From a virus (lineage: Duplodnaviria > Caudoviricetes): 37,693 bases of DNA. A program made the translations under genes and the position numbers. The notes below the pieces were generated by a model. That model worked only from the letters and a program-made list of their open reading frames with translations, was not told where the DNA came from and made no database searches. Shown here piece by piece: positions 22,808 to 30,514 of this stretch. The stretch is taken from positions 1 to 37,693 of the IMG/VR virus record IMGVR_UViG_3300043394_000191, one strand, 5' to 3'. Numbering within the stretch: the stretch's first letter is position 1; each line of letters starts with the position of its first letter.

Positions 22808-22960
22808 AAAAAAACGCCTTTGATCTAGTCCTTGGTGACAGATACCGTCGAAAGGTAAACTGGCAAAAAGGAGAGCCATTGTTTTACGGTAAAACAAGGA
22901 CTAGATCGAAAGCGTCTCAGGTTTTACCTCTCTGTTTTCCCGCCCCTGTCACAAGGCACC
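22808..22960 (-). ncRNA. Structured 5' leader of rha (C4-antisense-like or attenuator)
   Basis: 21-bp inverted repeat 22814-22834/22895-22915 (19 of 21 match), plus an alternative pairing 22830-22841/22946-22956. Confidence 0.5.
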
Positions 22961-23030
22961 AATTAAGGCTTAAGGGTTGTGCAACCGCCACTTCCGTAAT
23001 CGGGCGAATAGGGCAGCGGCGCACGGATTT

Positions 23031-23058
23031 AGTATAGCAAATGCTGGTTAGGTTTCAA
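23031..23058 (-). promoter_or_regulatory. Putative sigma70 promoter for rha and the replication operon
   Basis: Minus strand TTGAAA-16-TATACT with extended TG. Confidence 0.55.
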
Positions 23059-23060
23059 GG

Positions 23061-23183
23061 TTAAAATATAAAAACAATGTGAAGCCAGATTAGGCCAATT
23101 CGTAGCTGTGACTTACCCCATTCCAAACCCAGTAAATAAGGATTGCCACATACTTTTTTAGACTGAATAAATGAAACTTGCAT
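23061..23183 (-). CDS. Small hydrophobic hypothetical protein (40 aa)
   Basis: Read by hand: GAGG RBS, MQVSFIQSKK...LIWLHIVFIF. Confidence 0.4.
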   Translation of the reverse strand: MQVSFIQSKKVCGNPYLLGLEWGKSQLRIGLIWLHIVFIF

Positions 23184-23201
23184 AAAATAACCTCAGGTTT
23201 T

Positions 23202-23299
23202 GGAAATACACGGCCTATGCCGCAAAATATACAAACCATCTAAAAATCAAGAACTTAGTTTGTAGATATACGGCTCAGACTGTATATTCCCTGTTATAC
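23202..23299 (+). other. Left array anchor: attI-position palindromic element with IHF-consensus site
   Basis: Ends in core GTTATAC (23293-23299). Imperfect inverted repeat with AATCAAGAACTTA (23245-23257) at its centre. Similar to 30396-30514. Confidence 0.6.
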
Positions 23300-23650
23300 G
23301 GTCTCAGGAGCGCAGGTATTCGCGTGCTTCTTAATCCACTCAATCGCTTCGCCAATAGTTTTGCATTTGCTTTCACGAACGTCACAATTACCACTAGCAA
23401 GCCAAAAATTACCAGCTTTATCTCTAAAGCCTGTCTCTATATCTCGCCAACCAAACCCAGTGCGCCTATCCAGAACGGTTATACTTCCAATGTCACAATG
23501 AAACGCTTCTTGGTAGTTGTCGTCATACTCCCAATTTGGGTCATTGTTCATTTTTACTGAATGAAAAATGTCGCGCTGAAATGGTGAATTTAAAACAACC
23601 CCAGCCCAACATTCTTTTCCGTGTTCATTTATGTATCGTTCCATTTTCAT
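23294..23650 (-). CDS. Cassette L1 hypothetical protein
   Basis: GGAG RBS then ATG at 23650 or 23644. TAA stop lies inside core GTTA. The ORF-track extension to 23728 runs through the attC. Confidence 0.75.
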   Translation of the reverse strand: MKMERYINEHGKECWAGVVLNSPFQRDIFHSVKMNNDPNWEYDDNYQEAFHCDIGSITVLDRRTGFGWRDIETGFRDKAGNFWLASGNCDVRESKCKTIGEAIEWIKKHANTCAPETV

Positions 23651-23665
23651 CACTCCGAAAGTTTC

Positions 23666-23749
23666 GTATAACAAAAAGTTGCAGCCGATGGTGCCCCAAA
23701 GGCTAATTAAATTTCTACTCCCCGCCACGGGCTGAACTTGGCGTTATGT
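23666..23749 (+). repeat. attC site L1 (84 bp)
   Basis: GTATAAC-AAAAA-GTTGCAGC...GCTGAAC-TTGGC-GTTATGT. Confidence 0.9.
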
Positions 23750-23953
23750 GTTGTCGCATGGTTCAATCAAAAGTTCGCATTCTTTCATTGGCGCATGCCC
23801 AAGCATATAAATACGGCTCTTAATATATTTAATCGCTGAATCGTATGCCGCACGCTGCGTCCTAAAATGATTTGAGTCACGCATGGCACTAATTCCAGTC
23901 GGCTTGTGCGTAACCCGTACCGCAAACCGAACCATACTGCTGCTAGTTATCAC
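23744..23953 (-). CDS. Cassette L2 protein, release-factor (RF-1) domain-like, without GGQ
   Basis: AVRVTHKPTGISA...RTQRAAYDSAIKYIKSRI resembles the RF1/RF2 segment AVRITHxPTGI...RSQxxNxxxAxxxLxxRI. GGAG RBS then GTG. Confidence 0.6.
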   Translation of the reverse strand: MITSSSMVRFAVRVTHKPTGISAMRDSNHFRTQRAAYDSAIKYIKSRIYMLGHAPMKECELLIEPCDNT

Positions 23954-23965
23954 TTCGGTAACTCC

Positions 23966-24051
23966 ACATAACAAAAATATGAACTGGATGCGGTTTAAGT
24001 TTGGCGCACTTCTATTTAGTTAAAAGCGCACCAGTTATATTGGCGTTACAT
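23966..24051 (+). repeat. attC site L2 (86 bp)
   Basis: ACATAAC-AAAA-ATATGAACTGGATGCG...CGCACCAGTTATAT-TGGC-GTTACAT. Confidence 0.88.
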
Positions 24052-24054
24052 TCA

Positions 24055-24201
24055 CTAGTATCGTTCATCATCACAACTACATTGTGAATCTCGAATCTCA
24101 GCGCGCAACTCTCTTAATTGCTGCTGGTATTCTTTTTGTGTAATGTTTCCTTCAGCTAATTCGTTTTCAATTTCTTCGTAAGCTCTGTCCATCCAATCCA
24201 T
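24055..24201 (-). CDS. Cassette L3 small protein (48 aa), SHOCT-like
   Basis: Read by hand: GAGGTG RBS, MDWMDRAYEEIENELAEGNITQKEYQQQLRELRAEIRDSQCSCDDERY. Confidence 0.7.
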   Translation of the reverse strand: MDWMDRAYEEIENELAEGNITQKEYQQQLRELRAEIRDSQCSCDDERY

Positions 24202-24232
24202 AAATCACCTCATTAATTAGCTTGCTATGTAA

Positions 24233-24316
24233 ATGTAACCAGTCACTCAAAGCGACTGTCTAAGCATTTGTGTTTTTATCACTGCTTAAACGCAGCGCTT
24301 TAGCTCAACGTTAACT
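24233..24316 (+). repeat. attC site L3 (84 bp)
   Basis: ATGTAAC-CAGTC-ACTCAAAGCGACTG...CAGCGCTTTAGC-TCAAC-GTTAACT. Confidence 0.88.
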
Positions 24317-24511
24317 TCTGTACCGCTTACCAACAAAATCATCACCTAGAAATTGTTTCGCTTTTTCGGTTTCGTTTATTTCAATCTCAAAATCTTCAAC
24401 TAAGCAAACAACAAATCCTTTCTTTTCAAGTTCATCTATTGCGCCAATATCTGGAATTGATTGGCCCCGGTCTATTCGCTTTAAACACTTAATCGCTCTT
24501 TTGCTTAGCAT
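24311..24511 (-). CDS. Cassette L4 hypothetical protein (possible winged helix)
   Basis: 66 aa, IDELEKKGFV...TEKAKQFL. Stop lies in the core site. Confidence 0.7.
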   Translation of the reverse strand: MLSKRAIKCLKRIDRGQSIPDIGAIDELEKKGFVVCLVEDFEIEINETEKAKQFLGDDFVGKRYRS

Positions 24512-24527
24512 TTTATTGTATTCCGTT

Positions 24528-24611
24528 AGTTAACAAGTCAATCTTGCGGACGGGATTTAAGTAGCCGCCCAGTTCGCTTACTCCCAGCCGCCGCAAATCT
24601 CGGCGTTATAC
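24528..24611 (+). repeat. attC site L4 (84 bp)
   Basis: AGTTAAC-AAGTC-AATCTTGCGGACGG...CCGCCGCAAATC-TCGGC-GTTATAC. Confidence 0.88.
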
Positions 24612-24812
24612 GCTTTCTGCCTGAGCTAACAGCAAGTCAACAAATTGCATTTTCAATTCAGCAATCTGCCACTTTGTTTCGGCCATAGCTTCTGCTGTAA
24701 TCTTGCGATCTGAACCAGCCGCGTAGTTGTACTGCATTGTCACGTTGTCCAGCCTTGCGTTTATCATGTCAAGAATTCGCTGCGCTGGAACTTGTTGCTG
24801 TAATATTTTCAA
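24606..24812 (-). CDS. Cassette L5 hypothetical protein
   Basis: 68 aa, GGAGTG RBS then TTG. Stop lies in the core site. Confidence 0.7.
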   Translation of the reverse strand: MKILQQQVPAQRILDMINARLDNVTMQYNYAAGSDRKITAEAMAETKWQIAELKMQFVDLLLAQAESV

Positions 24813-24834
24813 AGCTTATCACTCCGGTAGTTTC

Positions 24835-24911
24835 GTATAACAAGTCGTTGCAGCACACTACGCTACGCTTCGTTGGATGCGCTACGCGCACCGCTGAACT
24901 CGGCGTTATGC
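24835..24911 (+). repeat. attC site L5 (77 bp)
   Basis: GTATAAC-AAGTC-GTTGCAGC...GCTGAAC-TCGGC-GTTATGC. Confidence 0.9.
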
Positions 24912-25115
24912 TTGCCACTGAAATGACCCAACACTTCGTAAATCAGTCAATGCTTCTTTAATGATTTCAGTGTTGCACTTGCTAAATAGTGTAGGCTTCA
25001 AAAACATCAAAATTGCTAATTCTTCAGTAGCTTTTGGCAATCCCAAACTACTAACTTGGCATGAGCCTAAACAAGTCTCTAGTATTTCAATTAATATTTC
25101 TTTTGTGTATCCCAT
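24906..25115 (-). CDS. Cassette L6 hypothetical protein
   Basis: 69 aa. Stop lies in the core site. Confidence 0.65.
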   Translation of the reverse strand: MGYTKEILIEILETCLGSCQVSSLGLPKATEELAILMFLKPTLFSKCNTEIIKEALTDLRSVGSFQWQA

Positions 25116-25141
25116 AACTCACAGTCCTATCGTACTTGTTT

Positions 25142-25225
25142 GCATAACAAGGTTATCAAATTGACGGAATTTAAGCCGCCGTTTTAAAAATCTATTCCCT
25201 GCCGCAATTTATAACGGCGTTATAA
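25142..25225 (+). repeat. attC site L6 (84 bp)
   Basis: GCATAAC-AAGG-TTATCAAATTGACGG...CCGCAATTTATAA-CGGC-GTTATAA. Confidence 0.88.
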
Positions 25226-25510
25226 ACCAAAGACCTGATCACGTTCTTCTTGTGTCCCAACAAACTGAAAATATTCACCTGACTTGTAATCTTCAATATC
25301 ATCACTAACGTCAAAGCTTTCCCATCCGTTTAACGCAATCAAATCTCTTGCTGCTTGTGAGCGTTTTGCTATTTCAAGTTCAATCTGCAAATCAGCAATT
25401 CGCTTTTTAATATTTTCCACTTCACCTTCGTAGCCGTAGCCAATTTGCTTGGCTAAAAAGTCCCTGATTTCAGCTTTATCAAGTCCGTTGTGTTTTTCTA
25501 CGTTTTTCAT
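25220..25510 (-). CDS. Cassette L7 hypothetical coiled-coil protein
   Basis: 96 aa, GGAGTG RBS. Stop lies in the core site. Confidence 0.75.
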   Translation of the reverse strand: MKNVEKHNGLDKAEIRDFLAKQIGYGYEGEVENIKKRIADLQIELEIAKRSQAARDLIALNGWESFDVSDDIEDYKSGEYFQFVGTQEERDQVFGL

Positions 25511-25528
25511 GTATCACTCCGTATCGGT

Positions 25529-25614
25529 TTATAACAAGTCGCTCAAAGGCGACGGTTCATAAATTTGTTTTCTGTTCTAGCATCTTCATGCCGCGCTTTA
25601 GCTCGGCGTTATAT
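25529..25614 (+). repeat. attC site L7 (86 bp)
   Basis: TTATAAC-AAGTC-GCTCAAAGGCGACGG...CCGCGCTTTAGC-TCGGC-GTTATAT. Confidence 0.9.
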
Positions 25615-25980
25615 CGTCGGCATCGGCATATATCCGCGCGGGTTGTTTTCGTGCTCGGTTTCGTAGTAGTAATAATACTCGCCGTCAATTTGCTCGGCTT
25701 GCATGTTAGCGTAAGACCAGTCTTGAGACTCAGCGTTGTATATGCCGACCACAGGCCACGGCAATCCAACATCCAGCAGCACTTGGCCTTTTTTTGCATA
25801 GTCGTCAATCGGCTGAAATATCTGCCTCAACTCACAGTCTGCTACCATTGCGCTCATCTGTGCGTGGTGCTCGATAAGCCATTTTACTTTAGCCGTCCAA
25901 GTCGGAAACATGTCACGCACTTTATCTTCGTAAGTGTTGTTTCGGATTCGCTCCGCTGCTTTTATTGTTCCGCGTGTCAT
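25609..25980 (-). CDS. Hypothetical phage protein with a DUF551-like C-terminal region
   Basis: 123 aa, FQPIDDYAKKGQVLL...PRGYMPMP. Stop lies in the last core site. Confidence 0.7.
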   Translation of the reverse strand: MTRGTIKAAERIRNNTYEDKVRDMFPTWTAKVKWLIEHHAQMSAMVADCELRQIFQPIDDYAKKGQVLLDVGLPWPVVGIYNAESQDWSYANMQAEQIDGEYYYYYETEHENNPRGYMPMPTI

Positions 25981-26396: not shown

Positions 26397-26609
26397 TTAT
26401 AACTCCTTGATTTTTGAGTATGTGTAAACAGCGTGTTCATCGTAGCCAATCCATTTAAGTACAGCCGGATGTATTCTTTTGTGCTTCCCTTTTATTATCC
26501 TACTTAAATGCGCGCCTGATATTCCTATTGCTGCGGCGGCTTCTTCTCGCGTGTCAAACTGAAGATCAACCTGTACTTTTATTTTCGATAAAATTGTATC
26601 TCTATGCAT
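26397..26609 (-). CDS. Cro-like XRE/HTH regulator
   Basis: TREEAAAAIGISGAHLSRIIKGK. First gene after the leftward promoter. Confidence 0.85.
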   Translation of the reverse strand: MHRDTILSKIKVQVDLQFDTREEAAAAIGISGAHLSRIIKGKHKRIHPAVLKWIGYDEHAVYTYSKIKEL

Positions 26610-26633
26610 ATAACCCCCTTAGTTGGTAGATTC

Positions 26634-26704
26634 AATATATGCCTAATATTTTACGCAGTCAAGTAATTAATTTACTTGACATGGTAATTCTATGCGCATA
26701 TATT
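26634..26704. promoter_or_regulatory. Symmetric divergent sigma70 promoters with central operator-like palindrome
   Basis: Minus TTGACT(26662-26657)-17-TATATT; plus TTGACA(26676-26681)-17-TATATT. Palindrome GTCAAGTAA-N5-TTACTTGAC. Confidence 0.85.
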
Positions 26705-29576: not shown

Positions 29577-29596
29577 TCTGCAACGAATTGTTATGA
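29577..29596 (-). repeat. Truncated attC (R'' and L'' half only)
   Basis: Minus strand TCATAAC-AATTC-GTTGCAGA. No matching L'/R' arm found. Confidence 0.6.
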
Positions 29597-29620
29597 CCAA
29601 TTAATACGGAGTGAGATGCT

Positions 29621-29809
29621 ATGACTGAAGATGAATTCATAGATGAGTATGCTAAAAACTCAGGAATGAGTGTTCATGAAATTTTAAAGGATATGATTTG
29701 CCTACCTTGCGGGTGCGGTGATGTATGTTGCAGGGGTTTTGCTATGGTTCAAAATACACCAAGAGCAATAGAGACGCACAACCTGTTTTATGGGATATGT
29801 GAGTCATAA
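29621..29809 (+). CDS. Cassette R3 Cys-rich hypothetical protein
   Basis: 62 aa, LPCGCGDVCCRGFAMV. GGAGTG RBS. Stop lies in TAAC. Confidence 0.75.
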   Translation: MTEDEFIDEYAKNSGMSVHEILKDMICLPCGCGDVCCRGFAMVQNTPRAIETHNLFYGICES

Positions 29810-29888
29810 CGCCGAGATTTGCGGCGCGCTGCACGATACAACTACTGGGCGCGATATATGACGCGTCCGCAACATTGACTTGTTATGC
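29804..29888 (-). repeat. attC site R2 (85 bp)
   Basis: Minus strand GCATAAC-AAGTC-AATGTTGCGGACGCG...CGCGCCGCAAATC-TCGGC-GTTATGA. Confidence 0.88.
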
Positions 29889-29914
29889 ACACATTTACGA
29901 TAGGAAACTGAATT

Positions 29915-30118
29915 ATGAAAATGCCACAGAACGACCTTAGCTCAAGAGTCAATGAAATGCACTACTTTAATGCTGGGACAAAGGTGATTGAATCATTGGA
30001 CAATTACAAAACAGTCAGAACAGTTGTTTCTGTCGGTGGTCTTTTTAAGGATGACCACATACAGTTAGATGATAAAAATTCCCCTTGGATGATTGCCGGT
30101 CATTACGAAAGAGCATAA
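29915..30118 (+). CDS. Cassette R2 hypothetical protein
   Basis: 67 aa, AGGA RBS. Stop lies in TAAC. Confidence 0.7.
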   Translation: MKMPQNDLSSRVNEMHYFNAGTKVIESLDNYKTVRTVVSVGGLFKDDHIQLDDKNSPWMIAGHYERA

Positions 30119-30160
30119 CGCCAAGTTCAGCGGCTTGTCCGCTGCAACGACTTGTTATGA
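30113..30160 (-). repeat. attC site R1 (48 bp, minimal)
   Basis: Minus strand TCATAAC-AAGTC-GTTGCAGC-GGACAAGCC-GCTGAAC-TTGGC-GTTATGC. Confidence 0.9.
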
Positions 30161-30185
30161 CAAATTGACGAAGCGAGAAACTAAA

Positions 30186-30401
30186 ATGGTAGAAAAGATG
30201 GAAGTTGAGTGGGTTGAGATTGATAGTGCGGAAGATGTGGAAAATGTGCTTGTTGGTGATGAGCTTATTCTATGGGATGGCTGCGACTTTGCAATTGACT
30301 ACGTAGAAACAGAGGTGGAGTTTGGCACTTCATTCTTTGCGAATGGGACGGAAGCAACACATTATTTGCGTGGACTTAAACCGCCAAACGAGAAGTCATA
30401 A
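30186..30401 (+). CDS. Cassette R1 acidic hypothetical protein
   Basis: MVEKMEVEWVEI...ATHYLRGLKPP. Stop lies in TAAC. The ORF-track extension to 30093 runs through the attC. Confidence 0.7.
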   Translation: MVEKMEVEWVEIDSAEDVENVLVGDELILWDGCDFAIDYVETEVEFGTSFFANGTEATHYLRGLKPPNEKS

Positions 30402-30514
30402 CAGCGGAATATGCGGCCTGACCCGCAAAACTCCAAATTTAAGCCTGAAATTTAATAAATAAATCAAAGGTTTAAAAGTTGGCATGATACTTTCGCGGTT
30501 AGGCCGTATATCCA
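30396..30514 (-). other. Right array anchor: attI-position palindromic element with IHF-consensus site
   Basis: Core GTTATGA (minus, 30402-30396). Arms GGAATATGCGGCCTGACCCGCAAAA and TTTCGCGGTTAGGCCGTATATCC. AATCAAAGGTTTA at 30462-30474. Confidence 0.6.

Follow-up and report, generated by a model that had tools for sequence, protein, structure and literature searches.

Clusters of attC sites without an integron integrase (CALINs) were defined by Cury 2016, where their mobilisation in trans is also proposed (PMC4889954), and Qi et al. 2023 report 17 of them in 10,705 phage genomes, together with recombination of phage-borne attC sites by IntI1 in E. coli, including recombination with attI1; the TJE1 and PH101 arrays are described there as typical in orientation, and off-target or illegitimate capture is suggested (PMC9892861). 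A 2026 review cites, in the part of its text that is available, only Qi 2023 for phage arrays (PMC13492144), and the available parts of PMC13676570 and PMC8876359 hold nothing on an attI-headed layout with inverted open reading frames (ORFs). No paper on attI-headed phage arrays with inverted ORFs was found in a literature search covering papers outside subscription; phage CALINs are known already, and it is the attI-headed, reverse-polarity form that was not found in print. This form is described here from IMGVR_UViG_3300043394_000191, an IMG/VR record of a virus of the Caudoviricetes (Duplodnaviria) that was analysed over its whole stretch of 37,693 nucleotides (the window). The window carries two attI-headed cassette arrays with genes inverted relative to attC, and it is likely that a host integron integrase (IntI) acting in trans gains, loses and reorders their cassettes.

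The arrays resemble the CALINs of Qi 2023 in being attC clusters in a phage genome without intI. In the phage elements described there attI is reported only where the element has its own intI, whereas here a conserved attI heads each of two arrays, every ORF is inverted and phages exchange the cassettes (PMC9892861). With sedentary chromosomal integrons the arrays share attC anatomy, bottom-strand polarity, the G|TT crossover and single-ORF cassettes (PMC4889954, PMC5027507), as well as the attI family of the intI-bearing contigs L138, L153, L164 and L166. They differ from them in that no intI was found and, beyond one weak 9/12 match, no cassette promoter (Pc) was seen at attI, in ORFs that face attI, with the 5' end of the gene and its ribosome-binding site adjoining R'', and in phage-like cargo whose expression would come from the far end of the array. 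Insertion at attG, as described by Loot et al., is alike in that IntI acts in trans on replicons without an integron; attG is given as a short GWT consensus used in either orientation, whereas the window has extended, conserved attI at syntenic positions (10.1101/2022.09.11.507474).

Array 1 had been described in an earlier note, made from the sequence without database searches, as seven cassettes with perfectly self-complementary cores, and re-examination confirmed the seven core pairs with their coordinates (Table 1): each entry core is fully complementary to its own R'' (7/7), and only 2 of the 5040 possible orderings of the entry cores can match all seven R'' boxes. The accompanying claims held as well, namely that no R'' is fully complementary to the R' of its own hairpin (0/7 hairpins) and that the sites have attC architecture, R''-5 bp-8-base L'' (extra base at position 4)...L'-5 bp-R', with the plus strand as top strand. 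A second array, which the note had not reported, lies at 29580-30431 in mirror orientation and contains three modules with self-complementary cores (3/3), two full attC sites and one truncated site; its ORFs are also inverted relative to attC and all stop in the core (3/3). Over both arrays the entry core complements its own R'', with crossover at G|TT, in 10/10 cassettes, and attC anatomy with an extrahelical base on the L'' arm was found in 9/9 sites. In each array at least two attC sites (seven in array 1, two in array 2) stand without a nearby intI, which makes them CALINs, and the arrangement of a complete integron, intI beside attI, was not found in the recovered record.

Run over the window, a pattern detector found 9 attC sites; over 30 random windows it found 0-1 per window. 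The covariance check that the note had proposed was run with a model trained on 19 attC sites from metagenome arrays of non-phage type whose genes are sense (10 sites came from intI-linked or housekeeping contexts and 9 had no label). It gave exactly these 9 sites in the window, at expect values (E) between 3e-9 and 1e-5, each of them on the strand predicted as the bottom one, the other strand giving none up to E 5; Rfam had no match for the window. The L box pairs at 7/7 positions on the bottom strand in every site and at 3-5/7 under reversed polarity, and on this ground and that of the covariance matches the minus strand was rejected as the attC top strand of array 1.

Table 1 Features of the two cassette arrays and their surroundings in the window
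Feature	Positions	Strand	Content or basis	Entry core/own R''
Palindrome copy upstream of docking site 1, possible accessory binding site	23206..23227		Sequence likeness	
attI-type docking site 1, G|TT crossover at 23293	23264..23299	+	Palindrome CGG-N6-CYG, degenerate L box, 4-bp spacer	
Cassette 1	23293..23743	+	ORF 23294-23650 minus, 118 aa; attC 23666-23749	GTTATAC 23293/GTATAAC 23666
Cassette 2	23743..24045	+	ORF 23744-23953 minus, 69 aa; attC 23966-24051	GTTATGT 23743/ACATAAC 23966
Cassette 3	24045..24310	+	ORF 24055-24201 minus, 48 aa; attC 24233-24316	GTTACAT 24045/ATGTAAC 24233
Cassette 4	24310..24605	+	ORF 24311-24511 minus, 66 aa; attC 24528-24611	GTTAACT 24310/AGTTAAC 24528
Cassette 5	24605..24905	+	ORF 24606-24812 minus, 68 aa; attC 24835-24911	GTTATAC 24605/GTATAAC 24835
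Cassette 6	24905..25219	+	ORF 24906-25115 minus, 69 aa; attC 25142-25225	GTTATGC 24905/GCATAAC 25142
Cassette 7	25219..25608	+	ORF 25220-25510 minus, 96 aa; attC 25529-25614	GTTATAA 25219/TTATAAC 25529
Resident phage gene of 123 aa at the right boundary of array 1	25609..25980	-	Stop codon inside last core	
Divergent sigma-70-like promoter pair, predicted, driving both early arms toward the two attI sites	26634..26704		Consensus match only, 10 and 11/12	
Truncated attC closing array 2 (R'', spacer, L'' only)	29580..29596	-	Sequence reading	
Cassette B3 module	29590..29810	-	ORF 29621-29809 plus, 62 aa	
Cassette B2	29804..30119	-	attC 29804-29888; ORF 29915-30118 plus, 67 aa	
Cassette B1	30113..30402	-	attC 30113-30160; ORF 30186-30401 plus, 71 aa	
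attI-type docking site 2, G|TT crossover at 30402	30396..30431	-	Motif likeness to docking site 1	

All seven ORFs of array 1 lie on the minus strand and are thus inverted relative to attC polarity, a feature absent from the earlier note, and the usual integron layout, with the ORF on the top strand reading from attI to attC, was found in 0/10 cassettes. The array 1 ORFs start 12-38 bases inside the reverse of R'', and 6/7 end on a TAA made by the reverse of the G|TTA core. Because the arrays flank the predicted divergent promoters at 26.6-26.7 kb, all ten cassette genes run with their arm of the early region; the minimum of the cumulative GC skew is at 26618. The single weak Pc candidate upstream of attI (23159-23188) would read antisense to the ORFs. 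Among the attC-bounded modules of 20 viral contigs, including this one, 58/78 are self-complementary (permutation mean 13.8, maximum 27), those of up to 460 bases have self-complementary perfect 7-bp cores in 52/54 cases, and the longer ORF is antisense in 74/76 self-complementary modules, 37 of which stop in the core.

Gene orientation was also compared among metagenome loci carrying the docking-site motif, of which 27/82 were labelled by their neighbouring genes (19 bacterial, 8 phage). The first ORF behind the site was sense in 13 of the 19 bacterial-context loci, antisense in 1, absent in 2 and too short in 3, that is, sense in 13/14 callable loci, and antisense in 8/8 phage-context loci; with a looser detector, 17/20 bacterial modules were sense. 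An individual bacterial cassette can contain an inverted gene together with a promoter of its own. In one phage-headed array (L020:4029-4482) the first cassette has a sense ORF and a 133-base attC of bacterial type, and is possibly a host cassette caught by the phage. Unrelated cassette ORFs of the window share short 5' leaders that include the ribosome-binding site and occupy the first 35 bases inside R'' (e.g. 23640-23672, 24810-24841 and 25505-25535); similar leaders occur in 15/68 viral modules, as if attC and leader were a reusable start module.

The sites that head the two arrays are homologous, each consisting of a palindrome resembling CGG-N6-CCG, then a degenerate L box, a spacer of 4-5 bp and G|TT. 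A narrow form of this head motif matched 13 viral loci, 5 of them directly heading an attC array, and among 9 further array heads located through the attC pattern 6 have the whole motif by eye, 2 a partial motif and 1 none; second palindrome copies stand ~60-80 bp upstream in several related heads too. A wider form matched 83 metagenome stretches, of which 82 were examined, and in 8/82 a divergent intI lies 125-328 bp from the motif. The 4 full-length intI proteins beside the motif all score above the TIGR02249 cut-off, and the sites beside them align with the phage heads; judged by sequence, the heads of both arrays and the attI of bacterial integrons that have a divergent intI form one site family. 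A class-level sample of 401 genomes searched with the attC 5' pattern gave 22 that matched, and the 19 of 20 loci examined yielded one usable module, an uninformative control. attI without intI nearby was seen in the bacterial or unlabelled contigs L100, L101, L103, L109, L137, L140, L143 and L146, with L137 carrying attI twice within 630 bases, and the host group may likewise often have attI platforms that lack an integrase.

The cassettes have moved among phages as whole units. The copy of cassette 1 in L003 matches at 97% identity over the full 380 bases, from core to core, and the cassette lies behind attI here and behind attC there; cassette 3 has a copy in L019 that matches at 91% identity over the full 195 bases, also core to core, and the cassette lies behind attC here and first, directly at attI, there. 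In both, identity begins at the core, where attI and attC share only GTTA. Cassette 6 matches L060/L061 at 91.5% over 212/244 bp from its entry core, and the other seven cassettes have no comparable match among the fetched loci. Contigs of other studies begin at, or at most 2 bases from, the entry cores of cassettes 1, 5 and 7, the matches running from 24605 for cassette 5 and from 25218 for cassette 7. Among relatives, docking site 2 recurs in G020 (84% over 128 bases up to the core), where different cassettes follow it and no array lies between the flanks of array 1; G018 repeats the layout of two arrays around the Sak4-like gene, with different cargo; the resident gene at the right boundary of array 1 has a 91% homologue in L002 without any attC there. 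In the comparison of cassette content and order that the note had proposed, positions or cargo differ in L003, L019, G018 and G020, and these comparative data support the cassette nature of the units, a crossover at G|TT and an exchange between phages. Among named phages, the only DNA match to the array is a short stretch of the cassette 1 ORF found in Vibrio phages K121/K122, and plasmids gave no match. A collapsed attC remnant of ~20 bases lies inside the phage array of L003 (L003:1650-1671).

No tyrosine recombinase had been recognised in the earlier note, and none was found by PF00589 or TIGR02249 at E<=10 in six frames of the recovered sequence. IntI was found in 0/19 array-bearing viral records, most of which are incomplete. 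PF00589 occurs in 1/20 viral records (G002); the tyrosine recombinase beside the G002 array was rejected as IntI, having no match to the NCBIfam integron integrase. Array-bearing records with terminal repeats (G017, G018) or 90-100% completeness (G005, G010, G020) have no PF00589, and G005, G010, G017 and G018 have no TIGR02249. The 133-bp attC of the intI-bearing integron L153 is 88-90% identical to attC in the viral contigs L020 and L176. From the kinship of the heads with bacterial attI and the lack of IntI in the 19 array-bearing viral records, we infer that host IntI would act in trans. The system would work in an integron-like manner as a CALIN with attI, not as a complete integron, and is apparently active.

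IntI is reported to cut the folded bottom strand of attC at AAC in R' (PMC5027507), and the strand that it would fold and cut here is the coding strand. Circles excised by attC x attC recombination would be inserted at attI, which lies at the arm end far from the predicted phage promoter, so that new cassettes would be placed furthest from that promoter. The inverted genes would be read from the phage promoter and, being antisense to the host Pc, would likely be silent in a host integron. If replication is co-directional with transcription, the bottom strand would be the lagging-strand template, a location reported to favour attC folding (PMC5371416). Top-strand recombination could not give this layout, because ORF and attC would invert together; 7-base inverted repeats end each ORF module, so that inversion between them, or building on phage transcripts, would fit an origin of the inverted cassettes.

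A wider proposal is put forward tentatively, at somewhat less than even chances: unrelated phages of one host group may keep their own cassette pool on the host integron machinery, with reverse-polarity genes and phage-adapted copies of attI, the cassettes being expressed only in the phage and silent in the host, which would allow a network of site-specific exchange for early accessory (possibly counter-defence) genes and leave a visible route of cassette making. Integrons are seen as bacterial tools, and the phages considered here seem to have docking sites and a cassette pool of their own and to borrow the same enzyme; if so, site-specific exchange would account for part of the mosaicism of phage early genes. 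One attI family behind which genes have opposite polarity in host and phage offers a direct test system, and genes found both in ordinary phage form and as cassettes of exact fit are relevant to how cassettes originate. Integrons have lately been viewed as stores of anti-phage genes (10.1101/2024.07.02.601686), and the cassettes described here are candidates for counter-defence screens.

Several observations weigh against the reading of attI-headed arrays served by host IntI. The record, taken in the earlier note for an apparently complete genome, proved to be linear, without terminal repeats and ~87% complete. The training sites of the covariance model were chosen by the author's own detector and their structure was set by hand. 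Minimum-energy DNA folds give the full canonical bottom-strand hairpin in 1/7 array 1 sites, and excision may therefore be rare; among the contigs of the source sample, neither cassette circles nor exact excision joints were seen. Docking site 1 has an L-R spacer of 4 bp, compared with 5 bp in most relatives, and the phage-type head form gave 24 matches in a species-level genome scan, 0 of them at an attC array, which were treated as chance. The region holds 10 promoter-like sites, fewer than its shuffles (mean 19.5). The comparative loci were found with motifs taken from this window, so that module and orientation counts describe one site family, and orientation calls follow a longest-ORF rule. 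attC-attC joints that occur in read contigs were not counted as excision, their sides being <40 bases with no exact excision lengths.

That the mover is instead a recombinase of a helper phage, satellite or other mobile element (IntI-like or short Xer-like), and not the host chromosomal IntI, is considered unlikely. It would suit the uniform 82-87 bp class into which 71/90 distinct viral attC sites fall, unlike the varied bacterial ones, and the spacer variant that many phage heads have as their own, whereas the heads are of the site family that stands beside true IntI genes, and the sole tyrosine recombinase among the 20 viral records is the one in G002 without an integron-integrase match. 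An integrase of the phage itself, lying in the unrecovered part of the genome or too divergent for detection, would be compatible with the incomplete record and its many ORFs without a family; by gene order, the gap would fall between injection and tail genes, away from both attI, and the five array-bearing records named above for their terminal repeats or completeness lack PF00589, all but G020 also being shown without TIGR02249, so that this explanation appears very improbable.

The arrays might also be relics, once inserted by IntI at attI or at secondary attG and now spread only by homologous recombination across similar attC sites. Crossovers inside two attC sites would preserve the core signature, the phage has the recombination genes Sak4-like, NinB and NinG, one attC is truncated and most are not canonical at minimum energy, and a short GWT consensus is reported to suffice for attG insertion (10.1101/2022.09.11.507474). 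Homology cannot explain how cassettes 1 and 3 each lie next to attI in one genome and inside the array in another, with identity from the core; perfect 7-bp cores persist in all 10 cassettes here and in nearly all short viral attC-bounded modules, and a conserved extended head is unexpected for attG, which together leave the relic explanation improbable. Scarcely credible is bacterial integron DNA misassembled onto a phage, in spite of the bacterial type of the sites. The likely source sample is a freshwater metagenome, and its contigs cover 22930-25900 as a tiling with overlaps of 30 bases, zero differences and even depth (68-94 in run X1), so that the array is not chimeric; the join with bacterial DNA that the earlier note had named as a possible refutation is not seen in this tiling, and misassembly is refuted as far as source-sample contigs, which are not independent of the record, can do so. 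The ORF polarity is opposite to that of bacterial arrays, and the cassette 1 gene has attC-free homologues in 10/11 viral loci and in Vibrio phage K121. In run X1, record 6, a lower-depth contig of the same sample has the end of the resident gene (25606-25675) joined to another attC; this single contig, with a short side, hints that a relative whose last cassette differs may co-occur.

Since such attC-free homologues occur in viral loci and K121, cassette 1 is a phage gene that also exists as a cassette, and the cargo as a whole is likely to consist of phage accessory genes, not bacterial cassettes. None of the 10 cassette ORFs scored above the Pfam or PADLOC cut-off, and the ESM Atlas, consulted for cassettes 1 and 7, yielded no family of use; cassette 7 has 25 homologues, all unnamed. 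The cassette 2 protein (23744-23953 minus), for which 4 homologues were found, has a weak likeness (E 0.002-0.02) to the part of release factors 1 and 2 (RF1/RF2) just after GGQ, without GGQ itself; this possible likeness to release factor 2 is taken as a lead only.

The gene content of the window includes P22-like portal, coat and connector genes together with NinB, NinG, Rha and a Sak4-like gene, and the nearest named capsids are those of gammaproteobacterial phages at 38-41% identity; a PDB search with a neighbouring gene pointed to no taxon. Early and head genes are lambdoid/P22-like, yet no family match to an integrase or a CI-like repressor was found in the whole window, in which one weak helix-turn-helix motif was seen at 26397-26609. 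A 21-base inverted repeat with arms 60 bases apart (22814-22915) lies in the leader of the Rha/antirepressor gene.

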